A stretch of DNA of 64,000 nucleotides, taken from contig CAVYSW010000003.1 in NCBI GenBank assembly GCA_963771275.1, positions 1,088,001 through 1,152,000 of the forward strand. Direction: 5' to 3'. The stretch is from an uncultured Gemmatimonadales bacterium (GTDB lineage: Bacteria; Gemmatimonadota; Gemmatimonadetes; Gemmatimonadales; GWC2-71-9). The translations under genes and the position numbers were made by a program. The notes under the pieces were generated by a model. That model was not told the origin of the DNA and ran no database searches. It worked only from the letters and a program-made list of their open reading frames with translations. This document shows positions 43,997 through 63,441 of this stretch, in pieces; position 1 is the first letter of the stretch, and every line of letters begins with the position of its first letter.

Positions 43997-44095
43997 GGGA
44001 ATGCCTGGCATAATCCCCAGTCTCTTAACGCGCGCCCGGGGTCGCCGCTGTGCCGCAGCGCACAGTTGGCGATCGGGGTGCGGTCTGGGGTCAGA

Positions 44096-44962: not shown

Positions 44963-45053
44963 GGGCGGGCTCACTGATGGAAGCGCTGTCACAAGATGAG
45001 CCAAACCGACCGGCGCGAGCAAGCGGCCGCCGGCCGGGCCCCATCGTCCGCCC

Positions 45054-45081
45054 TTCCATCGGCCACCGGGCGACCTATACT
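45054..45081 (+). promoter_or_regulatory. Putative sigma70 promoter of the first korAB pair
   Basis: TATACT 45076-45081 with weak TTCCAT 45054-45059. Confidence 0.45.
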
Positions 45082-45118
45082 TCGAAACACGCCCCAGCGT
45101 TGAAAGGCCCATACCGTC

Positions 45119-48003: not shown

Positions 48004-48235
48004 GTTGTCGTCTTAAAGGTGTCTTCATGGAAAACTTCGGCGGTGGTTCCCGCATCGCCTTTACCATTAGGACGCTGTTCGCATAGGAGCGCCGTTACGA
48101 AACCGCGACCGTGGTCGCGTCATGCCGCGAGGGATCTGGGGGACAGTCACTGGCTGTCCCACTGCGCGGCGGACCGGGCCCGGTCGCGCTTCGTGGACGG
48201 CTGATGGGTTCCTGAACCTCAGCTCAGGTCTGCAC

Positions 48236-50143
48236 ATGGTCAGCCCTTCCCCCGTCGCGACGAAGAAGCCCAAGGCGCCCAAAGGCGCCCGGCCGGTCGT
48301 CCTCCGGGTTCCCGAGCATACCGTCGAGGTCGTCTCCGACTCCGGCGAAGGCGCGCAGAAATGCGGTCAGATCTTCGGGTCGGTCTCTGCCAAGATGGGC
48401 AACGGCGTGTGGACCGTGGAGATCATCCCCGCCGAGATCCAACCCCCCCCGCGGTCGGGCACGGGCGCCTCCGGCAACCTGATTCGGATCGGCACCAAGC
48501 CCGTCACCAACTGGGGTGACGCGGCGCATCTGGTGGTCGCGTTCAACGAGCAGGCTCTGGTCGCCCGACATCGGCTCGAGGCGCTGCACGACGATGCGAT
48601 CATCCTGGTCGAGAGCATGTGGGCGACCCACGACGACGAGGACATCCGGCGGCAGTGGGCCGAGGCGATGGACGAGCTTTCCCACCGGCGCTACACGATC
48701 ATCGGCGTGCCGATGGAGGAACAGACCCTGACCCTCACGGACAACCCGCGCCACGGGAAGAACATGTTCGTGCTGGGCATGCTCTCGTGGATCTACGACC
48801 GGGACCTCGACCTCACCCGTGACCTGATCCGCTACTCGTTCCGTCGCAAGGCGGCCGAGGTGGCGCAGCTCAACGTTGCGCTGTTGGAGCTGGGCTACCA
48901 ATGGGCCGGGGAGAATCTCGACTTCCGGATCGACGTCCCGGCGCAGAAGCCCGACAAGCCGATGATCGTAATGAACGGCAATCAGGCCCTCGCGATGGGA
49001 GCAGTGGCGTCGGGGATGGAGCTGTGTTCCATGTACCCGATCACGCCGGCGACGTCGGTTTCTCACTACCTGGGCGACATCTTCGAGGATTACGGCGGGA
49101 TCGTACACCAGGCGGAGGACGAGATCGCCGCCGCCGGCGTCGCAATCGGCGCCTCCTATGCCGGCAAGGTCGCGTTCACGGTGACGTCGGGTCCGGGCCT
49201 CGCGCTCAAGACCGAGTTCATCGGACTGGCCACCATGGTCGAAGTGCCGCTCGTGGTGCTCGACGTGCAGCGCGGCGGCCCGAGCACGGGGCTCCCCACC
49301 AAGGTCGAGCAGTCCGACCTGCTCGCCTCGGTCTTCGGCCAGCCCGGCGACGCGCCCAAGGTCGTCCTGGCGCCGGCCACGATCGAGGAGTGCTTCCACC
49401 TGGTGATCACCGCGCGGCGCGTTGCCGAGGCGCTGCGGTGCGTGGTCGTGGTGCTCACCGACGCCAACCTCGCGACCGGTGTGCAGCCGTTCTCGCGGCC
49501 CGAGGTGGACCCCCGTTGGATGTCGGTCCCACCGGATCTGAGCTCGGTCCCCGACGGCGTGAAGCCATACGACTGGGATCCGGAGCTGGGGCTCTCGCGC
49601 CGCTTCATTCCCGGCCAGCCGGGAGGCATGCACACCCTGACCGGGTTGTCGCATGATGAGGCCAGCCACGTCGCGTACGGCCCCGAGGAGCACGAGCGCG
49701 GCTGCGCCATGCGGAGCCGCAAGATCGCCGTCTTCCAGCAGACCCTGACGCCGCCCGAGATCTGCGGCGATCCCACGGGCGACCTGTTGGTCGTCGGCTG
49801 GGGCTCCACCAAGGGCGCCATCGACGAGGCGGTCGAACGGGCGCGGGCCCAGGGGCTCAAGGTCTCCTCGCTCCATCTCCGCGTGCTCTGGCCCCTGCCG
49901 TCGGGGCTCAAGGACATCTTCGCCGGGTTCCGCAAGGTCGCGACGATCGAGATCAACTACAGCGATCGGCTAGGCGACCCGCACATCACCCCGGAAAACC
50001 GGCGCATGGGGCAGCTGGCGTGGTTGCTCCGCGCGAACACCTTGGTGGACGTGGATTGCTGGACCCGCGTGCCGGGTCAGCCGCTCCGGCCCATCGGGAT
50101 TCTGGAGGGCATCCAGAGCATGATGCCCGGGAGGAAGGCGTGA
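48236..50143 (+). CDS. 2-oxoacid:acceptor oxidoreductase alpha subunit, copy 2 (divergent)
   Basis: VSDSGEGAQ, PAEIQPP, MYPITPATS, QAEDEIAA, TSGPGLALK.E, QRGGPSTGLPTKVEQ. Confidence 0.9.
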   Translation: MVSPSPVATKKPKAPKGARPVVLRVPEHTVEVVSDSGEGAQKCGQIFGSVSAKMGNGVWTVEIIPAEIQPPPRSGTGASGNLIRIGTKPVTNWGDAAHLVVAFNEQALVARHRLEALHDDAIILVESMWATHDDEDIRRQWAEAMDELSHRRYTIIGVPMEEQTLTLTDNPRHGKNMFVLGMLSWIYDRDLDLTRDLIRYSFRRKAAEVAQLNVALLELGYQWAGENLDFRIDVPAQKPDKPMIVMNGNQALAMGAVASGMELCSMYPITPATSVSHYLGDIFEDYGGIVHQAEDEIAAAGVAIGASYAGKVAFTVTSGPGLALKTEFIGLATMVEVPLVVLDVQRGGPSTGLPTKVEQSDLLASVFGQPGDAPKVVLAPATIEECFHLVITARRVAEALRCVVVVLTDANLATGVQPFSRPEVDPRWMSVPPDLSSVPDGVKPYDWDPELGLSRRFIPGQPGGMHTLTGLSHDEASHVAYGPEEHERGCAMRSRKIAVFQQTLTPPEICGDPTGDLLVVGWGSTKGAIDEAVERARAQGLKVSSLHLRVLWPLPSGLKDIFAGFRKVATIEINYSDRLGDPHITPENRRMGQLAWLLRANTLVDVDCWTRVPGQPLRPIGILEGIQSMMPGRKA

Positions 50144-51102
50144 TCCAGACTTCTTGCTCGTTCCTGACCTGCGGCCACGACGAGGACGACGACGAGCGCA
50201 GCTGGACGATGGAGGACTACGCCGGGGCGATTCCGCGCTGGTGCCCCGGGTGCGGCGACCACGCCATCCTCACGGCAGTGCAGCGCTTGCTCGAGGCCGA
50301 ACAGCTCCCTCCGGAAAAGACCGTGTTCGTGTCTGGGATCGGCTGCTCGAGTCGGTTTCCCCACTACCTCTCGACCTACGGGTTCCACGGCATCCACGGG
50401 CGGGCCCTGCCGATCGCGAGTGGGGTGAAGCTGCGGCGGCCCGACCTGGACGTGTTCGTCGTGATGGGGGACGGGGACTGCTGCTCGATCGGTGCCGGCC
50501 ACTGGATCCACGCGGTTCGGTACAACATGGACATGGTGGCACTCATGCTCGACAACGGCATGTACGGGCTCACCAAGAAGCAGACGTCGCCCACGACCCC
50601 GCAGGGGTACCCGAGCAACACGCAGCCCCGGGGAAGCCATCTCGTTCCGCTCAACCCGCTGACCGCCACGCTGGGCATGACCAACGCCTCGTTCGTGGCG
50701 CAGACGGCCGACTGGATGCCGGCGCACCTCTACGAGACCATCCGCGCGGCCTATCAGCACAAGGGCTTCTCGTTCGTCCGGATTCTGCAGCGCTGCCCGC
50801 AGTACACCAGCGATCTGTTCGAGCAGGCCGTCCGCAAGCCCGATCTGGTGGAGCTGCTGGTGCACGAGGACGGCGTGATGGCGCCCGAGCTCGAGCGGAT
50901 CTACAAGAACCGGCGGCGTCACGACCCCAAGGACCTCGACACGGCCCGTCACCTCGCCGAGGCCACCGCGCCGATCCGCCTCGGCGTGTTCTTCCGTGAT
51001 GAATCCAGACAACGCTACGAGGAGCTCCGCCGCCAGCGGGTGTACACGGCGCAGGAGAAGATCGAGCGTCTGAATCGGGAGTTCGACAAGTATGCCGTCT
51101 GA
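50140..51102 (+). CDS. 2-oxoacid:acceptor oxidoreductase beta subunit (TPP-binding), copy 2
   Basis: WCPGCGD, SGIGCSSR, HGIHGRA, GDGDCCSIG, DNGMYGLTKKQTSPT, QRCP; GTGA overlap. Confidence 0.9.
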   Translation: MIQTSCSFLTCGHDEDDDERSWTMEDYAGAIPRWCPGCGDHAILTAVQRLLEAEQLPPEKTVFVSGIGCSSRFPHYLSTYGFHGIHGRALPIASGVKLRRPDLDVFVVMGDGDCCSIGAGHWIHAVRYNMDMVALMLDNGMYGLTKKQTSPTTPQGYPSNTQPRGSHLVPLNPLTATLGMTNASFVAQTADWMPAHLYETIRAAYQHKGFSFVRILQRCPQYTSDLFEQAVRKPDLVELLVHEDGVMAPELERIYKNRRRHDPKDLDTARHLAEATAPIRLGVFFRDESRQRYEELRRQRVYTAQEKIERLNREFDKYAV

Positions 51103-52090
51103 CGATCGCCAGCAGGTCGCGATGGCCGCCCTGGCCGGCCCCCGGAATCGGTACCGCTCGGTCCTGGCAACGACGCTGGGGGAGGTCCGCGCCCATCTCG
51201 ACCGTCATCAGATGGAGGCAGACGATCGTGTGTCCCAACTCGCCGCGGAGCTGGGCGACGTGGGAAGTCGCCTGGTGAATGTGAAGCGACTCGCCTCCGT
51301 GATGCTGGCGGAGCCGGCCGTCCAGCCGGCGACGCGGGAAGCCATGCGACGGGCCCTCGCGGTGCTCGAAGACCTCGCGGCGCGAAGCGACGAGGCGTTC
51401 GCGCTTGACCTGGCGCCCGGCGAGGGCCTGTATCAGGCTGCGGCCACGTTGTTGGGCGACTTCGGGCGGGCGATGGGCGCCGCCCGGGTGGTGGATGCCG
51501 CGCGGAGCGGACGCTATCGCCCGGCCGAGCATGACCGGTATCTCCGCGCCTTCCCGTTCGGGCAGTGGAGCCAGGCCGAACGCCTGCTCGGGCCGCCGAT
51601 CGTGATCGCGCTCGACGGTGCCGACCTCCGCCCGGCCGGCCTCGCCGAGTTCCTCGACGGGAACGTGAAGATCGTGCTGATCGCCCGGGGCGAAACCTCG
51701 CCGGCTCCGCTCGTCCGCCTGATCACGCCGCACGCGTTTGTCGCGCAGACGGACGATCCGGCGGTGATCGCGCGGCTCGGCAAGACCGACGGCCCGGGTG
51801 TCGTGGCGCTGATGCCGCCCCACAGCGCGCGCTTCGTGCACGATCCCGCGGCCGGCGCCGCACTCGGGCAGCGCCTCACCGTGGGCGAGGTCCCCTCGCT
51901 CGACGGCAAGCGGCGCTCCGGACCATTCACGGCGGCGCAGCAGCGCGAGGAGCTGGATCAGCTCAAGGCGTTGCAGGCGGCGGCCGCAGCCCCAACCGGC
52001 GGTCCGCTCGTGACCGGCACGGCGGGCACGGATCCGGTCGACAAGCTCGCGGCGTGGCTGCTCCAACAGGCGGACCTGTCGGGGGCGTGA
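51092..52090 (+). CDS. Hypothetical protein; degenerate paralog of part of the PFOR TPP-binding domain
   Basis: Overlaps the upstream stop and abuts rnfB; YRPAEHDRYLRAFPFGQWSQAERLLGPPIVIALDGA aligns by eye with PFOR YDPKTHEGFFGRFDWHQFTDEEIAMCPPILAIGGDGA; no Cys. Confidence 0.8.
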   Translation: MPSDDRQQVAMAALAGPRNRYRSVLATTLGEVRAHLDRHQMEADDRVSQLAAELGDVGSRLVNVKRLASVMLAEPAVQPATREAMRRALAVLEDLAARSDEAFALDLAPGEGLYQAAATLLGDFGRAMGAARVVDAARSGRYRPAEHDRYLRAFPFGQWSQAERLLGPPIVIALDGADLRPAGLAEFLDGNVKIVLIARGETSPAPLVRLITPHAFVAQTDDPAVIARLGKTDGPGVVALMPPHSARFVHDPAAGAALGQRLTVGEVPSLDGKRRSGPFTAAQQREELDQLKALQAAAAAPTGGPLVTGTAGTDPVDKLAAWLLQQADLSGA

Positions 52091-52091
52091 C

Positions 52092-52949
52092 GTGCTGACC
52101 ACCTCGACCGTCCTCGTCTCCGGCGCGATCCTGGGCGGTGTCGGCACGTTCTTCGCCACCGTGATCGCGCTCGCCCGGAAGAAGCTCTACGTCTGGGAAG
52201 ACCCGCGCATCGACGTTCTGGCCGGGATGCTGCCGGGCGTGAACTGCGGAGCGTGCGGCCAGGCGGGGTGCCGCGCCTTTGCCGAGAGCCTCGTCCACGG
52301 GAAGATCCAGCCCGCGAATTGCACGGTCGCGACCGCCGACGCGCGTGCGGACATCGCCGGCTACCTCGGCGTCGATGTGGGCCAGGCGAGCACGCGCGTC
52401 GCGCGCTTGCTGTGCGCCGGCGGCTGCGACGTCGCGCCGTATCACGCGGACTACATCGGCTTGGAAACCTGCCGGGCGGCCGCGGCGGTGGCCGGTGGCG
52501 GCAAGAAATGCGCGTGGGGGTGCATCGGCCTCGCGGACTGCAAGGTCGCCTGCACGTTCGATGCGATCTACATGAACGACGAAGACCTGCCGGTGGTGAT
52601 CCCCGAGAAGTGCACCGCCTGCGGCGACTGCGTCGAGGCCTGCCCCAAAGACCTGTTCACGCTGATGCCGCTCGACCACAAGCTCATCGTGCAGTGCAAG
52701 AACCTGCTCGAGGGCGAGGAAGCCGATGCGGCATGCGCGGTGGCCTGCAACGGCTGTGGCCGGTGCGCGGCCGACGCGGCGCCAGGCCTTATCGAGATGA
52801 AGAACGGCCTCGCAGTCATCGACTACACCAAGTACGAACTGGCCTCGCCGGACGCCATCAAACGCTGTCCGACGGGCGCCATTGTCTGGGTCGAGGGCGC
52901 GCAGCAGTTCAAGGCGCGTCGTCCCCAGCTAGAGGGAGCGGCGGCATGA
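52092..52949 (+). CDS. rnfB: Rnf electron transport complex subunit B
   Basis: N-terminal TM; LPGVNCGACGQAGC, C.WGCIGL.DC..ACTFDAI, CTACGDCVEACP, CNGCGRC, CPTGAI. Confidence 0.95.
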   Translation: MLTTSTVLVSGAILGGVGTFFATVIALARKKLYVWEDPRIDVLAGMLPGVNCGACGQAGCRAFAESLVHGKIQPANCTVATADARADIAGYLGVDVGQASTRVARLLCAGGCDVAPYHADYIGLETCRAAAAVAGGGKKCAWGCIGLADCKVACTFDAIYMNDEDLPVVIPEKCTACGDCVEACPKDLFTLMPLDHKLIVQCKNLLEGEEADAACAVACNGCGRCAADAAPGLIEMKNGLAVIDYTKYELASPDAIKRCPTGAIVWVEGAQQFKARRPQLEGAAA

Positions 52950-55900
52950 TCCGGATTCGGAACAAGGGCGGGAACGGGAACGGCGACGACGCGAACGGGG
53001 CGAAGCCCAAGTACCCGGGTACGCGCACCGCCACCGACGGCAGCGGCGCGGTGGTCGAGATGGAGACCGCGGGGAGCGAGGGGGCGGGCGCTTACCCCAT
53101 CACGCCGTCCACGCAAATGGGCGAGGGCTGGGCCGCCGCGGTGGCGGCCGGCAAGCTCAACGTGAACGGGCGCTCGCTGATCTTCTTCGAGCCCGAGGGC
53201 GAGCACGCCGCCGCGGCGGTCACCGCCGGCATGAGCATGACGGGTCTCCGGGCCACGAACTTCTCCAGTGGCCAGGGCATCGCCTACATGCACGAGTCGC
53301 TGTACGCGGCCGTCGGCAAGCGGCTCACGTACGTGCTCAACGTCGCGGCGCGGGCGATGACCAAGCACGCGCTCAATGTGCACGCGGGACATGACGATTA
53401 CCACGCGGTGGATGACACCGGCTTCTTCCAGCTGTTCGCCAAGAACGTGCAGGAGGGCGCGGACCTCAACCTGATCGCGCACCGCATCGCCGAGTTGTCA
53501 CTCAACCCGGGCCTCGTGGCGCAGGACGGCTTCCTCACGAGCCACGTGATCGAGACGATGCTCATGCCCGAGCGCGCGCTCGTGAAGGAGTACCTCGGGG
53601 ATCCGGCGGACATCATCGAGTCGCCCACCCCGGCGCAGCGCTGGGTGTTCGGCAAGGAGCGGCGCCGCATCCCGGAGATGTTCAATCTGGACTACCCCGC
53701 CATGCTGGGAGTCGTCCAGAACCAGGACAGCTACGCGCAGGGTGTGGCGGCGCAGCGGCCGTTCTACTTCGACCACGTGCAGGCGCTGGCCGACCGCGCC
53801 ATGGCCGAGTACACCGCGCTGACGGGACGCGCCTACGCACGGGCGACGGGCTACCGGCTGGACGATGCCGAATACGTCTTGATCGGGCAGGGCTCTGTCG
53901 TGCCGAACTGCGAGGCGGTGTGCGACTACCTGCGCGACGCGCGCCGGCTCAAGATCGGCGTGCTCAACGTGACGATGTTCCGCCCGTTTCCCGCCGATCT
54001 CCTGACCCGCATGCTGCGCGGCAAGAAGGCTGTCACGGTCCTCGAGCGCACCGACCAGCCGCTGGCGGTGGACCTCCCGATGCTGCGCGAGATCCGGGCG
54101 GCCATGTACAAGGCCCTCGAGAACGGGCGCGCCGCCGGTGAGGTCCCGTATCCGGGCCTCACCGCCTGTCAGGCCGCCGAGATGCCGGACTTCTACTCCG
54201 GGTGCTTCGGGCTGGGCAGTCGCGACCTGCAGCCGGCTGACTTGATCGCGGCCGTGGACAACATGCTCGAGGGGGGCAAGCAGCGCCGCCAGTTCTACCT
54301 CGGGATCGATTTCATCCGGAAGGACACGCGCTTCCCGAAGTTGCAGATCTGGCAGGACGAGCTGCTCGAGCACTACCCGCACGTCGCCGACCTGTCGCTC
54401 CACCCGGGCGAGCCGGTAAACCTGCTGCCCAAGGGCGCAACGTCGATCCGGATCCACTCGGTCGGCGGGTGGGGCGCCATTACCACTGGCAAGAACCTCG
54501 CGCAGACCGCGGCGGACCTGCTCGGCCTCTACATCCAGGCCAATCCGAAGTACGGGTCCGAGAAGAAAGGGCAGCCCACCACCTTCTACGCGACGCTCGC
54601 CCACGAGCCGATCAAGCTCAACGCCGAGCTGAAACACGTCACGGTCGTGCTCTCGCCCGACCCGAACGTCTTCATGCACTCGAATCCGCTCGACGGGCTC
54701 GAGGAGGGTGGCGTCTTCATCATGCAGGGCGATCGCCCGCTGGCGGAGATCTGGCACGGGCTGCCGGCGACGGCGCGTCGCGCCATCGTGGAGCAGCGCT
54801 ACGAGGTCTACTTCCTCGACGGGTTCAAGATCGCGAGCTCAGAGGCCAGCGACCCGGAGCTGCGCTACCGCATGCAGGGTGCCGCCTTCATGGGCGCCTT
54901 CTTCCGCGCGGCGCCGCTCTGCAAACAAGAAGGGCTCGACGAGCAGCGCCTGTTCGAGGGCATCAAGAAGCAGCTCGTCAAGAAGTTCGGCCATCTTGGC
55001 GAAAAAGTGGTCGACGACAATGTGCGCGTCATTCGCCGCGGCTACGACGAAGTCGTGCGCCTCGATCCCGCGGCGCTCGCAGCCGAGCACGAGGAGGTTG
55101 TTGGTGCCGTGCCGCAGATGCCCGCGCTGCTGGGCGGGACCAATGTGCAGCCGGGTATCGGGCACGGTGGGCGCTTCTGGGAGCAGGTGTGCGTCCTCTG
55201 CAAGATGGGGGAGGACGGCATCGCCGATCCGTTCGCGGCGCTGTCCGCGATTCCGGCGGCGTCGAGCACGATCCGCGACATGACGAACGTGCGGTTCGAA
55301 GTGCCCGAGTTCATCCCGGACAAGTGCACCGGCTGCAGCCAGTGCTGGGTGCAGTGCCCCGATGCGGCGATCCCGGGGGTCGTGAGCGACATTCCCGAGG
55401 TGCTCGAGGCCGCCGTCCGCATGGTCGAGGCCGACCATGGGCGGCTCGACCGCGTCCGTCAGATCCTCAAGCCCCTCGCCGCCGAATCACGGCGCCTGCT
55501 GAAGGGCGTGCCGTTCACGACGTTCGCGGACACGCTGTCCACGGCGTTCCAGAACGTGGTGGAGAAGCTCAACCTCGATCCCGAGCGCACGGCGGCGCTC
55601 GACCACGAGTACGCCCCGGTCTACGCCGCGCTGGTGGATTTCCCGCTCGCCAAGACGGCACCGTTCTTCGACGTCGTCGAGAACAAGCAGAAGGGCACCG
55701 GCGGGCTGCTCTCGATCACGATCAACCCCGACGCCTGCAAGGGCTGCAACATCTGCGTCCGGGCCTGTCCGGACGGCGCGCTCACGACGGTCCGCCAGAC
55801 CGAGGAGGTCGTCGCCACGCTGCGCCGCAACTGGCGCCTCTGGCAATACCTGCCAGAGACCGACGACCGCTACGTGAATGTGGCGAACATCGACGAGGGG

Positions 55901-58003
55901 ATCGGCGTGCTGTCCTCCCTGCTGCTCAAGCAGGGCAACTACCGCTCGATGGTGGGCGGCGACGGCGCGTGCATGGGTTGCGGCGAGAAGACGGTGCTGC
56001 ACCTGGTCGTGTCGGGCATCAACGCACTGATGCTCCCGCGGGTGCGCCGCCATGTCCAGCGGATCGATGAGTTGGTGACGCAACTCGACCAGAAGGCGCG
56101 CAAGCTGCTTGCCGCGGACGCTCCGCTCACGGAGGTCGGCAAGGCCGAGGGGACCAAGGTGGAAGTGCCGATCACTGCTGCCGACAAGGCGCACGTCGAT
56201 CGTATCGCGCGCATGATCGAGGAGCTCAAGGACCTCAAATGGCGCTACACGGAGGGGCCGGGTGGCAAGGGGCGTGCGACCACCGGCATCGCGAATGCCA
56301 CGGGCTGCTCCTCCGTGTGGGGGAGCACGTATCCGTACAACCCATATCCGTATCCGTGGGTGAACCACCTGTTCCAGGACGCGCCCTCGATCGCCATCGG
56401 GCTGTTCGAGGGGAACATGCGGAAGATGGCCGACGGGTTCGCGGCGGTGCGGCGGGGCCAGCTCGAGCTCGCGGACGAGTACGACCCCAAGACCCACGAG
56501 GGGTTCTTCGGCCGGTTCGACTGGCACCAGTTCACCGACGAGGAGATCGCGATGTGCCCGCCGATTCTCGCGATCGGCGGCGACGGGGCGATGCTCGACA
56601 TCGGCTTCCAGAACCTGTCGCGGCTGCTGGCGTCCGGGAAGCCGATTCGCGTGGTCGTGCTCGATACCCAGGTCTACTCCAACACGGGCGGCCAGGCGTG
56701 CACCAGCGGGTTCACGGGCCAGGTGAGCGACATGGCCGCCTGGGGCAAGGCGCAGCACGGCAAGACCGAGACCCGCAAGGAGCTTTCGCTCCTCTCGATC
56801 GCCCACCGCAACGTGTTCGTGCTCCAGTCGTCGCAGGCCGCCTCGTCGCACCTGCTGGCCGGCGTCCTGCGTGGGCTGCAGTCACGTTACCCGGCGGTCT
56901 TCGCGCTCAACTGCCCGTGCCCGCCGGAGCATGGTCTGGGCGACGACGCCGCGACTGACGCGGCGCGGCTCGCGCTCGAGAGCCGCGCGTACCCGATCCT
57001 CACGTACGACCCGGCCGCCGGCGAATCGCTGGCCGAACGGCTGAACCTCGACGGCAATCCGATGGTGGATGAGGTCTGGCCGACCTACGACCTCAAGTAC
57101 ATCGACGAGAGCGGCCAGGAGCAGGTGATGAGCCTTCCGGTCACGATCGCCGACTGGGCGGCCACCGAGGCGCGCTTCAAGAAGCACTTCACGCCGCTGT
57201 CCAGGGACGCGGCCGAAGACGACCTGCTGCGGTTCGACCGCTATCTCGCCGCGTCTCCCGAAGAGCGCGAGGGCAAGACGCCGTTCATCTACGTGCTCGA
57301 GGACGCGCGCCGTCTCGGCAAGCTCTCGGTCTCGCACGAGATCGTCGAGTTGGCGCGGGATCGTCTGGCGCTGTGGGCGCAGCTCAAGGAGATGGCCGGA
57401 CTTGAGATCTCGCCGTCGGTGCGCGCGTCGCTGGACAGCGACCTGGCGGCCAAGCTCGAGGAGCGGGCCGGCGCGCTCAAGATGGAGCACGACAGGACGC
57501 TCGCCGACCTCAAGGCGCGCTACCCGGCGCTCGTCGCCCGGCGGCTCGTCGAAGGATTGATTCGCGCCACCGGGGACGGCAAGGAGAGCATCGGCGACCT
57601 GCTGCGCCGCGTGCAGGAGATGCCGACCCTCGAGCCGCTCAAGGTGGAGGGCGACGGCGACGGGAACGGCCACGGCGCGGCCGTGACCGCCACTCCCGCC
57701 GCTCCCGCCGCCGCTGCCGCTCCGGTGGCGGTGGAGGAGGCGGAGGAAGGCCTGGCGCTGGAGCCCTACATCCAGACCGAGTTGTGCACCGCGTGCAACG
57801 AGTGCACGAACCTCAACAAGAAGATGTTCGCCTACAACGAGAAGAAGCAGGCGTACATCAAGGATCCGCGCGCTGGCACGTTCCGTGAGCTGGTGATGGC
57901 AGCCGAGAAATGTCCGGTATCCATCATTCACCCGGCCACGCCGTTGAATCCGAAGGAGAAGGACCTCGACAAGTGGGTGAAACGCGCCGCGCGGTTCAAC
58001 TGA
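52946..58003 (+). CDS. por: Pyruvate:ferredoxin (flavodoxin) oxidoreductase, extended form (~1685 aa) with C-terminal ferredoxin domain
   Basis: YPITPS, EGEHAAA, ARAM, FRPFP, YGSEKKG, CTGCSQC..QCP, CKGCNIC..ACP, GACMGCGE, NATGCSSVWG, GGDGA, VYSNTGGQ, CPPEHG; extra CTACNEC...KCP at the C-terminus; ATGA overlap with rnfB. Confidence 0.92.
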   Translation: MIRIRNKGGNGNGDDANGAKPKYPGTRTATDGSGAVVEMETAGSEGAGAYPITPSTQMGEGWAAAVAAGKLNVNGRSLIFFEPEGEHAAAAVTAGMSMTGLRATNFSSGQGIAYMHESLYAAVGKRLTYVLNVAARAMTKHALNVHAGHDDYHAVDDTGFFQLFAKNVQEGADLNLIAHRIAELSLNPGLVAQDGFLTSHVIETMLMPERALVKEYLGDPADIIESPTPAQRWVFGKERRRIPEMFNLDYPAMLGVVQNQDSYAQGVAAQRPFYFDHVQALADRAMAEYTALTGRAYARATGYRLDDAEYVLIGQGSVVPNCEAVCDYLRDARRLKIGVLNVTMFRPFPADLLTRMLRGKKAVTVLERTDQPLAVDLPMLREIRAAMYKALENGRAAGEVPYPGLTACQAAEMPDFYSGCFGLGSRDLQPADLIAAVDNMLEGGKQRRQFYLGIDFIRKDTRFPKLQIWQDELLEHYPHVADLSLHPGEPVNLLPKGATSIRIHSVGGWGAITTGKNLAQTAADLLGLYIQANPKYGSEKKGQPTTFYATLAHEPIKLNAELKHVTVVLSPDPNVFMHSNPLDGLEEGGVFIMQGDRPLAEIWHGLPATARRAIVEQRYEVYFLDGFKIASSEASDPELRYRMQGAAFMGAFFRAAPLCKQEGLDEQRLFEGIKKQLVKKFGHLGEKVVDDNVRVIRRGYDEVVRLDPAALAAEHEEVVGAVPQMPALLGGTNVQPGIGHGGRFWEQVCVLCKMGEDGIADPFAALSAIPAASSTIRDMTNVRFEVPEFIPDKCTGCSQCWVQCPDAAIPGVVSDIPEVLEAAVRMVEADHGRLDRVRQILKPLAAESRRLLKGVPFTTFADTLSTAFQNVVEKLNLDPERTAALDHEYAPVYAALVDFPLAKTAPFFDVVENKQKGTGGLLSITINPDACKGCNICVRACPDGALTTVRQTEEVVATLRRNWRLWQYLPETDDRYVNVANIDEGIGVLSSLLLKQGNYRSMVGGDGACMGCGEKTVLHLVVSGINALMLPRVRRHVQRIDELVTQLDQKARKLLAADAPLTEVGKAEGTKVEVPITAADKAHVDRIARMIEELKDLKWRYTEGPGGKGRATTGIANATGCSSVWGSTYPYNPYPYPWVNHLFQDAPSIAIGLFEGNMRKMADGFAAVRRGQLELADEYDPKTHEGFFGRFDWHQFTDEEIAMCPPILAIGGDGAMLDIGFQNLSRLLASGKPIRVVVLDTQVYSNTGGQACTSGFTGQVSDMAAWGKAQHGKTETRKELSLLSIAHRNVFVLQSSQAASSHLLAGVLRGLQSRYPAVFALNCPCPPEHGLGDDAATDAARLALESRAYPILTYDPAAGESLAERLNLDGNPMVDEVWPTYDLKYIDESGQEQVMSLPVTIADWAATEARFKKHFTPLSRDAAEDDLLRFDRYLAASPEEREGKTPFIYVLEDARRLGKLSVSHEIVELARDRLALWAQLKEMAGLEISPSVRASLDSDLAAKLEERAGALKMEHDRTLADLKARYPALVARRLVEGLIRATGDGKESIGDLLRRVQEMPTLEPLKVEGDGDGNGHGAAVTATPAAPAAAAAPVAVEEAEEGLALEPYIQTELCTACNECTNLNKKMFAYNEKKQAYIKDPRAGTFRELVMAAEKCPVSIIHPATPLNPKEKDLDKWVKRAARFN

Positions 58004-58010
58004 GGGCCGG

Positions 58011-59336
58011 ATGCTGAGCCAGATGACGTTCCGCCACGGCGTGCATCCGCCCGAGCTGAAACAGCTCACGGCGCACGTCAAGATCCGGCGGCTGCCGTTT
58101 CCGCAGGAAGTCGTGCTGCCCCTGCTGCAGCACACGGGCAAGCCGGCCAAGCCTCTGGTGAAAGCAGGCGCCCGGGTCGAGCGCGGTGATCTCATTGCCG
58201 AGGCGGACGGCTGGGTCTCCTCGCCGGTCCACGCCTCGGCCAGCGGCACGGTCGCCGAGATCGGGTTGATGCCCCACCCGGACGGGACGTTCAAGCCGGC
58301 AATCCGCATCGCGGTCGAGCCGTTCTCCGCGCAGATCCCGCGCCCGCGCCTCGTGCCGGATTGGGAGGGGCTGTCACCCAAGGAGCTGATCGAGGCAATC
58401 CGGCATGCCGGGGTGGTGGGGCTCGGCGGCGCGGCGTTTCCGACGCACGTGAAGCTCTCGCCCCCGCCCGACAAGAAGATCGACCGGATCATCATCAACG
58501 GCTGCGAGTGCGAGCCGTACCTGACGACTGACCACCGGTCGATGGCCGAGTATCCGGAGCGCGTGCACCTGGGCATCCGGATCATGATGAAATGTCTCGG
58601 GGTGAATCGGGCGGTGATCGGCATCGAGAAGAACAAGCCCGACGCGATCGAGGCCCTCAGCCGGACCATGCCGTCAGACCTCGACGTCCGGATTCTGCCG
58701 CTCACGGTGAAGTACCCGCAGGGCGCGGAGAAAATGCTGATCGACGCCGTGACCGGTCACGAGGTTCCGTCGGGCAAGCTCCCGATGGACGTGGGCGTAC
58801 TGGTGCAGAACGCGGCGTCCGCCGCGACGATCGCGGAAGTGTTCGAGACCGGTCAGCCGCTCGTCGAGCGCATCGTCACGGTGACGGGACTCGGCGTGCA
58901 CCGGCCGTCGAACCTCATCGTTCCCGTGGGCACGAAGCTCGGCGACCTGATCGACGCGTGCGGCGGGCTGACCGAGGACGCCCGCGAGATCGTGTTTGGC
59001 GGGCCGATGATGGGGGCCGCCCAGGCGAACCTCGCGACGCCGCTCACCAAAGGCACGACCGGGGTGATCGTCCTGGCCGAGGGAGAGGTGAAGCAGCAGG
59101 AATCCTACCCCTGCATTCACTGTGGGCATTGCCTCGAGGCGTGCCCGGTGTTTCTCAATCCACAGCTGCTCGGCCGGCTCGCGGCGGCGGGACGCTACGA
59201 CGAGATGCAGGCGAATCATCTGGCCGACTGCATGCTGTGCGGCTGCTGCTCGTACGCTTGTCCCTCCAATATCCCGCTGTCGCAGCAGTTCGTGGCCGCC
59301 CGGGTTGCGCTGCGCCAGCGGAAGACGGCGGCATGA
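58011..59336 (+). CDS. rnfC: Rnf subunit C
   Basis: TF..GVHPP..K, QHTG.P, VHASASG, GLGGAAFPTHVK, NGCECEPYLT.D, KYPQGAEK, GGPMMG, CIHCGHC..ACP, CMLCGCC.YACP. Confidence 0.96.
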   Translation: MLSQMTFRHGVHPPELKQLTAHVKIRRLPFPQEVVLPLLQHTGKPAKPLVKAGARVERGDLIAEADGWVSSPVHASASGTVAEIGLMPHPDGTFKPAIRIAVEPFSAQIPRPRLVPDWEGLSPKELIEAIRHAGVVGLGGAAFPTHVKLSPPPDKKIDRIIINGCECEPYLTTDHRSMAEYPERVHLGIRIMMKCLGVNRAVIGIEKNKPDAIEALSRTMPSDLDVRILPLTVKYPQGAEKMLIDAVTGHEVPSGKLPMDVGVLVQNAASAATIAEVFETGQPLVERIVTVTGLGVHRPSNLIVPVGTKLGDLIDACGGLTEDAREIVFGGPMMGAAQANLATPLTKGTTGVIVLAEGEVKQQESYPCIHCGHCLEACPVFLNPQLLGRLAAAGRYDEMQANHLADCMLCGCCSYACPSNIPLSQQFVAARVALRQRKTAA

Positions 59337-60340
59337 GTCACTCCAGCTACCTGATCACGGCGTCTCCCCATCTCCGAAGCCCCGATTCCACGCCCAAAAT
59401 CATGTGGAGTGTGGTGGGGAGCCTCGTGCCGGTGATCGCCACGGCGACGTACCTGTTCGGGCCGAGCGCGGTGCTGGTGATCGCTGGCAGCACGGCCGGC
59501 GCCATGCTCACCGAGCGGCTGTTCGGCAAGCCCGGCGCCTGGCGCGACGGCTCGGCCATGATCACCGGACTGCTGCTCGGGCTGTGTCTGCCGGCGGGGA
59601 TGCCCCTGTGGATGCCCTTCCTGGGGGGCGTGTTCGGCATCGGCTTCGGCAAGCTGATCTTCGGCGGGCTGGGCCAGAACATCTTCAATCCCGCCCTGCT
59701 CGGACGCGCGTTTCTGCAGGCGGCGTTCCCTGTCGCGATCACGACCTGGCCGGCTATCGAGGGCGTCAAGTGGTGGTCGCTCCGCGGGGCGAATTTCGCG
59801 CTGCCGCTCATGAGTGGCGCGCAGGTCGATGCCGTCACCACGGCGACCCCGCTTGGCCTCATGAAATTCGAGCACACGGCGACCGCCGTGGGAGACCTCG
59901 CGTTCGGCAATGTGCCAGGCTCGCTCGGCGAGACCTCGGCGATCGTGATCCTGCTGTGCGGTGCCTACCTGGCGCTCCGCAACTACCTCAACTGGCGGAT
60001 CCCGGTGAGCATCCTGCTCACCGGGGCCGCGCTCAGCGGTGTGCTGCATCTGGTGAATGCGCAGTACCCAACCGCCGGGTTCATGCTGTTCTCCGGTGGG
60101 CTGATGCTGGGCGCCGTGTTCATGGCGACTGACATGGTGACCTCGCCCGTCACGAGTCTCGGCGCCTGGGTGTTCGGCGTCGGGGTCGGCCTGCTGGTGG
60201 TGGTGATCCGGATCTGGGGCGGGCTGCCCGAAGGTGTGATGTACGCCATTCTCATCATGAACGCGACCGTCCCCTCGATCAATCGGTTGACCCAGCCACG
60301 CGTCTTCGGTACGAGCCGGGCAAAGGCGGCCAGCCCATGA
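59333..60340 (+). CDS. rnfD: Rnf subunit D
   Basis: ASPH, DGSAMITGLLL, KLIFGGLGQNIFNPALLGR, TTATPL (FMN-Thr), GSLGETS, FMATD.VTSP, PEGVMYAIL. Confidence 0.96.
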   Translation: MSHSSYLITASPHLRSPDSTPKIMWSVVGSLVPVIATATYLFGPSAVLVIAGSTAGAMLTERLFGKPGAWRDGSAMITGLLLGLCLPAGMPLWMPFLGGVFGIGFGKLIFGGLGQNIFNPALLGRAFLQAAFPVAITTWPAIEGVKWWSLRGANFALPLMSGAQVDAVTTATPLGLMKFEHTATAVGDLAFGNVPGSLGETSAIVILLCGAYLALRNYLNWRIPVSILLTGAALSGVLHLVNAQYPTAGFMLFSGGLMLGAVFMATDMVTSPVTSLGAWVFGVGVGLLVVVIRIWGGLPEGVMYAILIMNATVPSINRLTQPRVFGTSRAKAASP

Positions 60341-61008
60341 CCGGCGGGCACGCGCACGCGGCGCCGCCGGCCGCGAGTCCCGCATCGGGCTCCACGGCCC
60401 GCAAGCTGATTCAGACCCTGGGCGGCCTGGGGCTCCTCGCCGGCCTCATCATCGTCGTCGCCTACGCCGTCACCCTGCCCCGCATCCAGGCGAACAAGGC
60501 CCGGGTGCTCGCGGCAGCCATCGACGAGGTGCTGGGCGCCCCAGCCCGCTACGACACGCTCTATGTGGTGCGGGACACGCTCAGCGCCACGCTGCCCGCC
60601 GGCGCGGATCCGGCGACCGCGGAGACGGTCTACCTCGGGTATCGCGCGGACAGCTCCGCGATCGGGTTCGCCGTGGTCGGCGAGGACCCCGGCTTCTCGG
60701 ACGTCGTGCGGCTGATCTTCGGCTACGACCCCCGCACGTCCAAGCTGCTGGGCATGAAGGTGTTGGAGGAGAAGGAGACGCCGGGCCTCGGCGACCGGAT
60801 CGAGAAGGACACCAGCTTCACCGGCGGATTCACCGACGCGGTGGCCCCCATCAAGGGCGTGAAGAAGGGGCAGGGCAAGCAGCCCAACGATGTCGACATG
60901 GTAACCGGGGCGACGATCTCGTCGCGCACGGTGATTCGCGCGATCAACAAGACTCTGGATCGGCTGAGGCCCGCCCTCGCCGCCCGCCTGCAGGAGGCCG
61001 CCCCGTGA
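60337..61008 (+). CDS. rnfG: Rnf subunit G
   Basis: N-terminal TM; ETPGLGDRI, VTGATISS (FMN-Thr). Confidence 0.93.
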   Translation: MTGGHAHAAPPAASPASGSTARKLIQTLGGLGLLAGLIIVVAYAVTLPRIQANKARVLAAAIDEVLGAPARYDTLYVVRDTLSATLPAGADPATAETVYLGYRADSSAIGFAVVGEDPGFSDVVRLIFGYDPRTSKLLGMKVLEEKETPGLGDRIEKDTSFTGGFTDAVAPIKGVKKGQGKQPNDVDMVTGATISSRTVIRAINKTLDRLRPALAARLQEAAP

Positions 61009-61667
61009 GCCCGGCCAAGCCAACGACCGCAACGCAGGATTTCATGCGCTGCGTGTGGAAGGAGAACCCGACCCTGGTGCAGTTGCTGGGGATGTGTCCC
61101 ACGCTCGCGGTCACCAACTCCGTCGCCAACTGCCTGGGCATGGGCACCGCCACGATGTTCGTGCTCGTGGGCTCGAGCTTCCTCGTGTCGGTTGTGCGCA
61201 AGGTGGTGCCCAACGAGGTGCGCATCTCCGCCTACATGCTGATCATCGCGACCTTCGTGACCGTGGCGGACATGGCGCTCGCCGCGGTGGCGCCCGGGGT
61301 CCACAAGGCGCTCGGCGCCTTCGTCGCGCTGATCGTGGTGAACTGCATCATCCTGGGCCGCGCGGAGGCCTTTGCCTCCAAGAACCCGGTGGGGCGGTCC
61401 GTGCTCGACGCCATCGGCAACGGCATCGGATTCACCTGGATGATGCTGGTGATGGGCTCGGTCCGCGAGGTGCTGGGCAACGGGACGTGGCTGGGCATGC
61501 GGGTGTTCGGCCCCCACTTCGAGCCCTGGATCATCATGATCCTGCCGCCGGGCGGGTTTCTGACGCTCGGGACGATCCTCCTCATCGTCGGCGCCGCGAA
61601 GTACCACCAGGCCGAGCGGGCCAAGGCACGCGAGCTGTCGCTGGCGATCGCGCGCGAGGCGGCCTGA
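61005..61667 (+). CDS. rnfE: Rnf subunit E
   Basis: ENP.LVQLLGMCPTLAVT, LIVVNCIILGRAEAFASKN, REVLG.G, PPGGF. Confidence 0.96.
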   Translation: MSPAKPTTATQDFMRCVWKENPTLVQLLGMCPTLAVTNSVANCLGMGTATMFVLVGSSFLVSVVRKVVPNEVRISAYMLIIATFVTVADMALAAVAPGVHKALGAFVALIVVNCIILGRAEAFASKNPVGRSVLDAIGNGIGFTWMMLVMGSVREVLGNGTWLGMRVFGPHFEPWIIMILPPGGFLTLGTILLIVGAAKYHQAERAKARELSLAIAREAA

Positions 61668-62248
61668 TGGGAAACCTCCTCTGGATTCTCGTCTCGACCG
61701 CGCTGGTCAACAACTTCACCCTGATGATGTTCCTGGGGCTGTGCCCGTTCCTCGGCGTCTCGAACAAGATCGACAGCGGGTTCCGCATGGGCCTCGCCAA
61801 CACGTTCGTGCTGGTGATGACGTCCATCGCCGTGTGGGTGCTCAACACCTACATCCTCAGGGCGGCGCCCTATCTCCAGCTCATTTCGTTCATCGTCGTG
61901 ATCGCCTCGCTCGTGCAGATCGTCGAGATGGTGATCAAGAAGCTGAGCCCGGCCCTGTTCCGGGCGCTGGGGATCTACCTGCCGCTCATCACGACCAATT
62001 GCGCGATCCTGGGGCTCGCGATCTTCCAGACCAATCGCGGGTACTCGCTGGTGGAGGGCATCTTCTTCGCCATCGGCGGCGGTCTCGGACTCATGCTCGC
62101 GCTCGTGCTCATGGCCTCGATTCGGGAATCGCTCGAGCTGGCGGACGTCCCGAAGGCCGCCCGCACCATGGGCCTCATCATGATCCTCGCCGGCTCGCTC
62201 TCCCTCGCGTTCATGGGCTTCGCGGGGCTGTTCAGCGCCACGTCATGA
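61667..62248 (+). CDS. rnfA: Rnf subunit A
   Basis: VNNF.L..FLGLCPFLGVS, IASLVQ.VEM, LGIYLPLITTNCAILG, LSLAFMGF. Confidence 0.96.
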   Translation: MGNLLWILVSTALVNNFTLMMFLGLCPFLGVSNKIDSGFRMGLANTFVLVMTSIAVWVLNTYILRAAPYLQLISFIVVIASLVQIVEMVIKKLSPALFRALGIYLPLITTNCAILGLAIFQTNRGYSLVEGIFFAIGGGLGLMLALVLMASIRESLELADVPKAARTMGLIMILAGSLSLAFMGFAGLFSATS

Positions 62249-62424
62249 TCCGTACCCTCATCGGCATCGCGGCCGTCGTCGCGCTCTTTCTGCTGTATGG
62301 CTGGTTGCAGTGGGGGCGGCCGCGCCATGGCTGCGGCAACTGCAGCTGTGGTGGCGACGTCTGCGAGCGCACCGGCGAGCCCCGCCATCTGGAACTCGTG
62401 GAGCACAAAGATGCCCGTTCCTGA
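62245..62424 (+). CDS. Small single-TM Cys-rich protein (59 aa)
   Basis: MIRTLIGIAAVVALFLLYGWL...HGCGNCSCGGDVC; ATGA overlap with rnfA and overlap with the apbE start. Confidence 0.75.
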   Translation: MIRTLIGIAAVVALFLLYGWLQWGRPRHGCGNCSCGGDVCERTGEPRHLELVEHKDARS

Positions 62425-63400
62425 AACCTCCGGGTCACTCCATCCCACGCGCCGGCAGTTCCTGGCGCTCGGCGTCGGCGCCTTCGTCGTCGGGACCGTT
62501 CCACTCGCGGGGCTCAGACGCCGCAGAGTGCGCCGCACGGTTCCGGTGATGGGGACCATCGCCGAGTTTGCGGTCGTGCACCGCAATCCGGTGTACGCCC
62601 ATGCCGCCATCGATGCCGCGATGGGCCGGCTGAATCTCGTGGAAACGCTGATGACGCGGTACAAGGACACCTCGGACATCGGCCGCGCGAACCTCGCCGG
62701 CAGGCGTGAGGCCGTCCACGTGACCGCGCAGACGGCGACGGTGCTGGCCGCTGCGCTGGGCTGGGCGGAATCCTCCGAGGGCGCGTTCGACCCCTGCATG
62801 GGATCGGCCATCGAGCTGTGGGATGTGGGACACCGACACCAGCCCCCGGCGGCGGACGCCGTGCGGCGTTTGGCGGGGCAGCGATTCTACCGCGACCTCG
62901 ACCTCGATCGCTGGCAAGGCCGTCCCGCGGCCCGGCTCACGGCGCGCGAGGCGCGGATCGACCTGGGCGGCATCGGTAAGGGCTACGGTGTGGATCAGGC
63001 CATCCAGATGCTCCGCGACTGGGGCATTCGCGACGCCATCGTGAACGTGGGCGGAGATCTCTACGCCATGGGGCGCTCCGAAGATGGCAACCCGTGGCGT
63101 ATTGGCGTGCGGTCACCGGCGAGCGCCACGGAGATGCTGGCGACGCTCGACGTCGAGGACCGGGCCGTCGCGACGTCCGGCGATTACCTGCAGTACTTCG
63201 AGTACCACGGGCGGCGCTACCATCACCTGCTTGACCCGGCCACCGCCGCCCCGCGCCTCTCCGCCATGCACAGCGTCACCGTCATGGCCGATGACTGCAT
63301 CACCGCGGACGCGGCCGCCACGGCGTGCTTCGGGCAGGACGTGGCGGCGAGCAACCGTTTGCTCACCAAGCGGTCGGCGCGTATCGTGCACCACGTGTAG
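62411..63400 (+). CDS. apbE: FAD:protein FMN transferase (Tat-exported)
   Basis: TRRQFL twin-arginine signal; MGT, GAFDP, DLGGIGKGY.VD, GGD, W.IGV, ATSGDY, YHHLLDP, ADAAATA. Confidence 0.95.
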   Translation: MPVPETSGSLHPTRRQFLALGVGAFVVGTVPLAGLRRRRVRRTVPVMGTIAEFAVVHRNPVYAHAAIDAAMGRLNLVETLMTRYKDTSDIGRANLAGRREAVHVTAQTATVLAAALGWAESSEGAFDPCMGSAIELWDVGHRHQPPAADAVRRLAGQRFYRDLDLDRWQGRPAARLTAREARIDLGGIGKGYGVDQAIQMLRDWGIRDAIVNVGGDLYAMGRSEDGNPWRIGVRSPASATEMLATLDVEDRAVATSGDYLQYFEYHGRRYHHLLDPATAAPRLSAMHSVTVMADDCITADAAATACFGQDVAASNRLLTKRSARIVHHV

Positions 63401-63441
63401 GCTCCGCGGCAGCACGGTCCGGTCGCGCAGGGAGGCTCCCC

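Follow-up and report, generated by a model that had tools for sequence, protein, structure and literature searches.

Twelve co-directional genes at positions 48236..63400 on the plus strand of a 64,000-nucleotide (nt) stretch of DNA from an uncultured Gemmatimonadales bacterium (the window, meaning the whole stretch analyzed) probably make up one inherited functional module, in which two 2-oxoacid:ferredoxin oxidoreductases (OFORs) would be linked to the Rnf complex by way of a ferredoxin joined through a covalent tether to the giant oxidoreductase encoded by por. The gene order is korA2-korB2-X-rnfB-por-rnfC-D-G-E-A-small cysteine (Cys) protein-apbE. Rnf couples ferredoxin:NAD+ oxidoreduction to ion translocation, and both Rnf and the OFORs occupy key positions in the energy conservation of anaerobes and in CO2 fixation that depends on ferredoxin; communication between the two is thought to proceed via diffusible ferredoxin. 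The module described here is a new, uncharacterized variant of these known enzyme systems, which the literature mentions no more than in passing.

A giant oxidoreductase gene inserted into the rnf operon

Gene identities were defined by open reading frame calls combined with Pfam and NCBIfam family scoring against curated cut-offs. All twelve genes that a preliminary description of this DNA had reported are present at these coordinates, and ten of the twelve produced family matches; no Pfam or NCBIfam match was obtained for X or the small Cys protein. After correction of start codons, the junctions measured -4 nt (korA2/korB2), -11 (korB2/X), +1 (X/rnfB), -4 (rnfB/por, ATGA), +7 (por/rnfC), -4 (rnfC/rnfD), -4 (rnfD/rnfG), -4 (rnfG/rnfE), -1 (rnfE/rnfA), -4 (rnfA/small Cys protein) and -14 (small Cys protein/apbE). 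The operon is as tightly packed as had been described, except that the overlaps of 11 and 14 nt at two of the junctions exceed the 7 nt given as an upper limit. The position of por between rnfB and rnfC and its 4-nt overlap with rnfB (ATGA) were likewise confirmed. What did not hold was the view that rnfB had been moved from its usual position: because rnfBCDGEA is already an established gene order, por is an insertion into that order and rnfB has not been displaced.

The por gene (52946..58003, +), whose start overlaps the rnfB stop, encodes a 1685-residue (aa) single-chain 2-oxoacid:ferredoxin oxidoreductase of the pyruvate:ferredoxin oxidoreductase (PFOR) type, with Pfam domains POR_N, PFOR_II, POR, two copies of Fer4 and TPP_enzyme_C. 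Its domains I, II, III, V and VI lie within one chain in the same order as in the homodimeric PFORs (NifJ/TIGR02176) of M. thermoacetica (6CIN) and D. africanus (1B0P), together with the thiamine diphosphate motif and all three cluster sets. Por aligned to 6cin_A (E 3.5e-87) and to 1b0p_A, and identity to characterized PFORs was approximately 30%. As the GDG thiamine diphosphate motif is kept (59 of 61 sequences) and so are the ligands of the three [4Fe-4S] clusters, whose cysteines were invariant in 12 of 12 sequences, por should be catalytically competent. Compared with 1B0P and 6CIN, however, por has a tethered ferredoxin at its end, gave no match to the Pfam EKR domain, reached a TIGR02176 score of 400 where the cut-off is 911, and is longer, exceeding the solved homodimeric PFORs by approximately 450-500 residues. 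Some 110 of the additional residues lie in domain V, inserted between its two cluster motifs; a helical hairpin precedes domain VI, and the C-terminus is extended by approximately 300 aa.

An AlphaFold model of por residues 1000-1685 (61-row alignment; mean per-residue confidence, pLDDT, of 82.4) was used to interpret the C-terminal extension. The model contains a long single helix of 52 residues (residues 1490-1541, model positions 491-542; 57413..57568, +) and, further along the chain, a predicted disordered tether rich in Ala, Pro, Gly and Glu with pLDDT <50 (residues 1565-1601, model positions 566-602; 57638..57748, +), which leads into a single-cluster ferredoxin domain with C1614, C1617, C1620 and C1656-P as its cysteines (residues 1602-1685; 57749..58000, +). 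Across 61 sequences the stretch from helix to ferredoxin varied between 49 and 118 residues (median 72) and consisted of 26% A, 11% P, 10% G and 9% E, which is the signature expected of a flexible tether. The ferredoxin domain itself was modeled with confidence (pLDDT >90), scored 28.3 bits against a Fer4_13 cut-off of 24.5, matched D. africanus ferredoxin I (1dax_A, E 5.9e-4), and retained the four cysteines of its CxxCxxC...CP pattern in 61 of 61 sequences. The preliminary description had stated that no free ferredoxin gene is present in the operon, which is literally correct and overlooks this domain (Fer4_13, residues 1612-1662); judged by its sequence, a ferredoxin carrier is present in the operon, fused to por.

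A further linker-ferredoxin copy was observed outside the window (L100:7901-8182, equivalent to G000:C3:1469900-1470181), consisting of an Ala/Pro-rich stretch and a ferredoxin domain with 51% identity to por residues 1585-1675. It lies in a 323-nt gap between genes for a kdpD-type sensor kinase and a porin, both on the opposite strand, and has no clean start or stop, with a frame that continues into the porin sequence. Both a gene fragment and a small ferredoxin gene are conceivable, its appearance favoring the fragment.

Recurrence of the module across genomes

Of 41 related genomes searched for por, 14 carried relatives with at least 59% identity, either full-length or cut by a contig end, and in all seven relatives for which flanks were fetched the order korA2-korB2-X-rnfB-por-rnfCDGEA-apbE was kept up to the contig ends. 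When one genome per species was scanned, 599 matching stretches were returned, 529 of which encode a relative; the best 80 of these 529 form the set of loci to which the counts of gene order refer. rnfB was found immediately 5' of por in 69 of 70 evaluable loci and rnfC immediately 3' in 54 of 55, while the complete korA2-korB2-X-rnfB block preceded por in 53 of 54, the exception being L063. The rnfB stop and por start overlap by exactly 4 nt in 57 of 77 loci and are separated by a gap of ≤0 in 72 of 77, with the more negative values probably due to automatic start-codon choice. On the other side, the distance from the por stop to the rnfC start is ≤30 nt in 37 of 57 loci and ≤100 nt in 48 of 57. 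A gene order not conserved elsewhere would have spoken against the preliminary description; the synteny comparison instead found the rnfB-por-rnfC order conserved, and the recurrence of the entire order among related genomes shows that the genes have not come together by chance.

According to their record labels, 65 of the best 80 loci belong to Gemmatimonadota lineages, 12 to other phyla and 3 are unlabeled; the other labels include Acidobacteriota, Planctomycetota, Gammaproteobacteria, Rokubacteria, Thermoanaerobaculia, Deltaproteobacteria and Geobacter. The phylum was also sampled directly using 301 evenly drawn Gemmatimonadota genomes from 126 genera, each at least 80% complete, and the C-terminal half of por was present in 54 of the 301 genomes and 33 of the 126 genera. 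Both results run counter to the earlier statement that the arrangement is unexpected in Gemmatimonadota: it is a patchy accessory module in the phylum and common in a subset of its members. When the same 301 genomes were queried with rnfC, 64 were positive. In one family (f10; G041-G064) all 12 sampled genomes encode an rnfC with 43-45% identity and no giant por, and a second, conventional Rnf lineage thus exists in the phylum. The remaining 52 rnfC-positive genomes were por-positive without exception (52/52), so that outside this family none of the sampled genomes yielded the Rnf type of the window in the absence of the giant por. Conversely, two por-positive genomes had no rnfC (G156 and G318), and in these the por matches were either partial or just 40% identical. 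The order to which one MAG (metagenome-assembled genome) labeled Gammaproteobacteria belongs, its taxonomy being a label only, contained 3 carriers of the module among 61 genomes, which fits sporadic transfer. A search at the protein level returned at least 120 clusters of 1649-1723 aa with 66-100% identity, and the named ones came mostly from Gemmatimonadota MAGs.

Several loci deviate in the por gene itself. In L019, por is encoded as two adjacent pieces (approximately residues 20-953 and 1001-1685) that lie 27 nt apart, and split genes were also observed in G089 and G319; these represent either a natural two-gene split or an assembly frameshift. In a five-contig genome (G256:C1:1430724-1433631), por is interrupted by one TAG and the adjoining rnfC lies in three pieces with one TGA, which could reflect joint decay of the module or assembly indel errors. 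One module-carrying genome also encodes a por paralogue (L101; G322:C101:31000-50999) with 35% identity over residues 19-1486, for which no match to the ferredoxin end and no rnf genes in the surrounding 20 kb were found.

A search of the literature, with subscription journals and supplements outside its scope, found the rnfB-PFOR-rnfC layout stated only once in the accessible texts. In the rnf2 operon of the Solemya velum gill symbiont, a PFOR is located between rnfB2 and rnfC2 (Dmytrenko et al. 2014, BMC Genomics 15:924, PMC4287430), which is the same insertion in an rnfBCDGEA-type operon. The por/rnf precedent in sulfur-oxidizing Gammaproteobacteria, a class to which the preliminary description had pointed, is therefore real. 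On the basis of this layout, the authors put pyruvate forward as a possible electron donor of that Rnf (PMC4287430), and the S. velum operon counts in favor of a functional module because pyruvate as an Rnf donor was suggested there independently. In its accessible text, the S. velum account amounts to one annotation sentence on a gammaproteobacterium, with no mention of a fused ferredoxin, korAB, X or the small Cys protein; the likeness rests on a description of layout and not on sequence comparison, and no biochemistry is reported there. A 2026 review of PFOR diversity (PMC13768988) mentions Rnf, in its accessible parts, solely as a complex that regenerates ferredoxin and in the reference list, and the terms "C-terminal" and "extension" do not occur in those parts. 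As the preliminary description had supposed, no biochemical or structural account of the module, the tethered ferredoxin or X was found in the literature covered, which left out subscription journals and supplements.

KorA2B2, protein X and the Rnf subunits

The other oxidoreductase of the operon is of the two-subunit kind. KorA2 (48236..50143, +; 635 aa) is an OFOR alpha subunit with domains III-I-II (Pfam POR, POR_N and PFOR_II) that scored 529.5 bits against a TIGR03710 cut-off of 482.75, and its nearest solved chain is 6n2n_A (E 5.1e-80), which we take to be a CO2-fixing 2-oxoglutarate:ferredoxin oxidoreductase. KorB2 (50140..51102, +; 320 aa, GTG start) is the thiamine diphosphate-binding beta subunit with TPP_enzyme_C (96.7 bits) and PFO_beta_C; its TIGR02177 score of 236.7 bits lies under the cut-off of 261.9. 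The pair was assigned as a two-subunit OFOR on the basis of an alpha subunit above its cut-off accompanied by a beta subunit with TPP_enzyme_C. Its domain make-up is that of the KorAB-type OFORs from Magnetococcus (6N2N) and Sulfolobus (5B46), which also lack a ferredoxin (delta) domain; Pfam gave no ferredoxin domain of its own for KorA2B2. What distinguishes the pair from 6N2N and 5B46 is that it is encoded within an Rnf operon, beside the cofactor-less, beta-like X.

X and the long polyferredoxin RnfB are encoded between KorA2B2 and por. X itself (51092..52090, +), situated between korB2 and rnfB, is a protein of 332 aa without a single cysteine and without the GDG thiamine diphosphate motif, the residues aligned to GGDGAM reading LDGADL. 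An AlphaFold model of X based on 57 homologues from the loci (pLDDT 91.6, predicted TM-score 0.85) retrieved D. africanus PFOR 1b0p_A as its best Foldseek match (E 8.6e-4, probability 0.95). With a second structural aligner the first six rows were all PFOR domain VI, at Z-scores of 7.2-7.8 that are middling when taken alone; model residues 1-296/300 aligned to PFOR chain residues 806-1172 over 191-200 residues, and further rows included oxalate oxidoreductase beta and PFOR beta. Profile comparison with hhalign matched X residues 122-270 to por residues 1159-1374 (probability 55%, E 1.2e-4) and X to the center of a family of PFOR-like proteins of ~840 aa (probability 99%, E 2e-18, 265 columns). 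The firm link between X and PFOR domain VI thus appears to run indirectly, via the ~840-aa family. Overall, the model identifies X as a probable cofactor-less relative of PFOR domain VI and OFOR beta, kin in fold only and not an enzyme. X is kept in 53 of 54 evaluable loci at 32-64% identity, and we infer from the sequences a structural role, possibly as a scaffold, adaptor or docking piece. A search of a protein atlas with X gave a best score of 0.87 to unrelated P-loop-type clusters and was rejected as a lead.

The C-terminal module of por is shared with other PFOR-like proteins. When the last 306 residues of por were searched against 1.84 billion representatives, 1508 proteins were retrieved at E<=0.001 and 380 at E<=1e-30, many of them approximately 830-870 or 1400 aa long with few or no Pfam domains besides a terminal Fer4_13. 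Two members that were read (P0144, 839 aa; P0216, 1415 aa) possess a PFOR-like body without the GDG motif. The P0144 and P0216 families have the same helix-linker-ferredoxin C-terminus as por; in them, however, the body is GDG-less, whereas in the operon por is intact and the dead part is a separate protein, the 332-aa X.

All six Rnf subunits (RnfABCDGE) are encoded together and, along with ApbE, correspond to those of the canonical Rnf complexes from A. woodii (9ERI), C. tetanomorphum (7ZC6) and A. vinelandii (8AHX). Unlike in these systems, a 1685-aa por gene is inserted, and an OFOR pair, X and a Cys-rich mini-protein are encoded in the operon; canonical Rnf takes electrons from free ferredoxin, whereas a tethered ferredoxin is proposed here. 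RnfB (52092..52949, +; 285 aa; Pfam FeS and Fer4) is a membrane-anchored polyferredoxin of the long "anaerobe" type, with A. woodii 9eri_B (E 4.4e-56) and C. tetanomorphum 7zc6_B (E 4.6e-49) as its nearest solved chains, compared with E 3.8e-13 for A. vinelandii 8ahx_B, and 20 of its cysteines are invariant in 65 homologues. RnfC (58011..59336, +; 441 aa), the NADH/FMN subunit, carries RnfC_N, Complex1_51K and SLBB and scored 525.9 bits (TIGR01945 cut-off 245.95). RnfD (59333..60340, +; 335 aa) and RnfE (61005..61667, +; 220 aa) also exceeded their cut-offs (TIGR01946, 297.2 versus 207.05 bits; TIGR01948, 238.6 versus 213.4 bits). Three subunits fell just under their NCBIfam cut-offs, namely RnfB (TIGR01944, 59 versus 68.7 bits), RnfG (60337..61008, +; 223 aa; TIGR01947, 97.4 versus 102) and RnfA (61667..62248, +; 193 aa; TIGR01943, 222.8 versus 229.3); each was over its Pfam cut-off, with FMN_bind at 57.4 bits for RnfG and Rnf-Nqr at 182 bits for RnfA. 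The RnfG translation contains TGATIS, presumably a flavinylation-type motif. In Rnf complexes, covalent FMN on RnfG and RnfD is installed by ApbE, and the apbE gene of the operon (62411..63400, +; 329 aa from the ATG at 62411) encodes an FAD:protein FMN transferase with a twin-arginine-like N-terminus (RRQFL) and a score of 249.7 bits to Pfam ApbE PF02424 (cut-off 25.6).

The small Cys protein (62245..62424, +; 59 aa) consists of one hydrophobic helix followed by CGNCSCGGDVC. A small open reading frame with a hydrophobic N-terminus and at least three cysteines was found between rnfA and apbE in 37 of 37 evaluable loci. Five of eight positional homologues matched PF12669 (FeoB_associated), all below the cut-off (best 26.3 versus 27 bits); the protein of the window itself gave no match to PF12669 or to the NqrM model. 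In the accessible text of a review (PMC12174285), nqr operons are described as ending with NqrM and ApbE, of which NqrM is needed for an intramembrane Fe-S center, and a small Cys membrane protein and a flavin transferase are likewise found 3' of the pump genes here. The small Cys protein, however, precedes apbE and NqrM follows it; the likeness in architecture and position is one of analogy and not of membership. By this analogy, the small Cys protein is proposed to be a metal or Fe-S maturation helper.

Upstream of the operon, another two-subunit OFOR pair is encoded by korA1B1 (45119-48003, +; 622 and 339 aa), 232 nt before korA2. The pair shares 34-35% (alpha) and 41-49% (beta) identity with KorA2/KorB2-type genes of the same loci, and was rejected as a part of the module as it adjoins it only in loci of the same genus (L017, L020, L022). 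Housekeeping genes, among them dnaN, polA and those for peptidases, make up the other neighbors within the window; dnaN (DNA polymerase III beta clamp; 441-1550, +) lies at the window start and polA at 10677-13436, and the region may be near the replication origin, though GC skew is flat along the window (66-75% G+C). A promoter and terminator scan of positions 44001-64000 returned 0 promoter-like and 4 terminator-like elements, compared with 1.1 and 6.9 in shuffled sequences, and was uninformative at 67-70% G+C.

Direction of electron flow and competing explanations

The organism in which the module resides was assessed from its 96.7% complete genome. Heme-copper oxidases, isocitrate lyase, a single citrate synthase-domain match of the ordinary type, a weak [NiFe]-hydrogenase match and four E1_dh matches were found, one of the latter in a 1237-aa frame, a length that fits 2-oxoglutarate dehydrogenase. 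RuBisCO gave no match, and neither did Citrate_bind, although the latter is a weak blank because the control was silent in every genome. A reductive tricarboxylic acid (rTCA) cycle of the ATP citrate lyase type, for which a check had been proposed in the preliminary description, is unsupported in the genome, given the one citrate synthase match and the missing Citrate_bind match with its silent control. Nitrogenase was also rejected as a consumer of Rnf electrons, as only weak P-loop matches to Fer4_NifH were obtained (best 26.4 bits over 38 positions). Together, the gene content points to an aerobic or facultative, respiring heterotroph. Because this heterotroph already owns NAD-linked 2-oxoacid dehydrogenases, the module would provide a parallel low-potential route beside them.

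In the mechanism we propose, por, and probably also KorA2B2, would oxidize a 2-oxoacid and pass the electrons to the tethered ferredoxin, which would then swing to RnfB at the membrane and deliver them, allowing Rnf to reduce NAD+ while moving Na+ or H+. A free ferredoxin pool would not be required, and the module should be reversible. The preliminary description had suggested channeling between oxidoreductase and Rnf within a membrane-docked complex, on the strength of a presumed stoichiometric co-translation. The dedicated electron path in that suggestion is strengthened by the tethered ferredoxin, the domain VI-like X and the co-occurrence of por with Rnf; a stable supercomplex is possible and is not needed for the module to function as described. 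With ion-pumping oxidation and its reversal both conceivable, the oxidative, energy-conserving direction under low oxygen appears to be somewhat the likelier main role in this heterotroph, because a recognizable autotrophic pathway is missing, a glyoxylate shunt is present, and RnfB resembles the forward-running type.

Operation mainly in reverse is conceivable, if less probable. Here, a gradient built by respiration would, with NADH, enable Rnf to reduce the tethered ferredoxin, and por and KorA2B2 would act as pyruvate synthase and 2-oxoglutarate synthase in anaplerotic or mixotrophic CO2 assimilation; as the main direction, such gradient-driven reductive carboxylation is a tentative option at best. 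The respiratory oxidases could power a reverse Rnf, and the nearest solved relative of KorA2 is the presumably CO2-fixing 6n2n_A. A review (PMC12174285) treats the reverse operation of Rnf as established in an aerobe, A. vinelandii, Rnf feeding 2-oxoglutarate- and pyruvate:ferredoxin oxidoreductases has been proposed for the facultative Ignavibacterium album (in the accessible part of PMC3362086), and in tubeworm symbionts rnf genes are integrated, in a different layout, into rTCA clusters with korABCD (Rubin-Blum et al., in the accessible part of PMC6315080). Several observations oppose this direction: besides the missing Citrate_bind (control silent) and RuBisCO matches and the lone citrate synthase, isocitrate lyase would permit assimilation of acetate without the need of a pyruvate synthase, and RnfB is far nearer to the forward-running anaerobe type than to that of A. 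vinelandii (E 4e-56 versus 4e-13).

A different question is which substrate por oxidizes. Against the TIGR02176 equivalog por scored 400.3 bits, far under the cut-off of 911.35, and it is therefore filed as a PFOR-type 2-oxoacid oxidoreductase and not as a proven pyruvate enzyme. Por might handle another 2-oxoacid, for example from amino acid breakdown, which would make the module a catabolic oxidation unit; we regard this as rather unlikely. In its favor, in addition to the low score, are the ~30% identity to characterized PFORs, the NCBI name of its relatives ("2-oxoacid:acceptor oxidoreductase family protein"), and the presence of two different oxidoreductases in one operon, suggesting two substrates. 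Conversely, the YPITP motif and the conserved Arg136 region, which we take to be assigned to pyruvate binding, align with the pyruvate-binding part of solved PFORs, and a change of substrate would not alter the mechanism.

The weakest alternative is mere co-regulation, in which a soluble ferredoxin carries the electrons, the por C-terminus serves as a relay within the enzyme or for protection, and X is a remnant pseudo-enzyme with no part in the structure: a shared operon alone is no proof of binding, canonical PFOR and Rnf systems use free ferredoxin (review PMC12174285, accessible text), and a second linker-plus-ferredoxin copy exists elsewhere in the genome, but we consider this explanation improbable given that por sits exactly between rnfB and rnfC with a 4-nt overlap kept over dozens of species, that por and this type of Rnf co-occur across genomes, that X is retained at nearly all evaluable loci and its homologue in the ~840-aa family carries a tethered ferredoxin, which points to selection for a role in structure or electron transfer, and that the extra ferredoxin copy between the kdpD and porin genes looks like a fragment.

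A number of points nevertheless weigh against an inherited module of two OFORs wired to Rnf by a tethered ferredoxin. Direction of flow cannot be read from sequence, and the ferredoxin domain of por may do no more than add an internal relay, or may give protection against oxygen, as the C-terminal domain of D. africanus PFOR does. The shortfall of por against TIGR02176 belongs here as well, as does the middling direct match between X and PFOR domain VI (Z 7.8; hhalign probability 55%). Downstream of por, the exact order rnfCDGEA-apbE was found in 35 of 44 evaluable loci; in five of the nine misses apbE or the last rnf genes were undetected in the flank (L040, L060, L079, L089, L098), in two apbE lies between rnfG and rnfE (L042, L074), one produced no rnfG, rnfE or rnfA matches (L062), and in the last rnfC is 6.8 kb away (L095). 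In L063 and L091 the order rnfB-por-rnfCDGEA-apbE was present with no korA2, korB2 or X match in the ~4 kb 5' of rnfB, and these parts are therefore not obligatory. Finally, every relative is a MAG, and kindred genomes are non-independent samples.

Beyond a functional module, por, KorA2B2, X and Rnf may form a stable membrane supercomplex in which the ferredoxin acts as a swinging arm that shuttles electrons between the OFORs and RnfB, by analogy with the lipoyl arm of 2-oxoacid dehydrogenases; this extension is speculative and we hold it to be doubtful. If true, the supercomplex would be a self-contained, ion-pumping 2-oxoacid:NAD+ oxidoreductase that bypasses soluble ferredoxin in oxygen-respiring soil bacteria, and in reverse a gradient-driven, CO2-fixing carboxylase.

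For the module itself, a carrier fused to its enzyme and inherited as a block across hundreds of species would represent a new form of low-potential wiring to an ion pump, and, should the proposed mechanism be true, would offer a compact, ferredoxin-independent unit for metabolic engineering. Many of the species that carry it are oxygen-respiring Gemmatimonadota of soils and sediments, in which the module could explain how extra energy is gained from pyruvate or 2-oxoglutarate at low oxygen, or how CO2 is fixed without a dedicated cycle.

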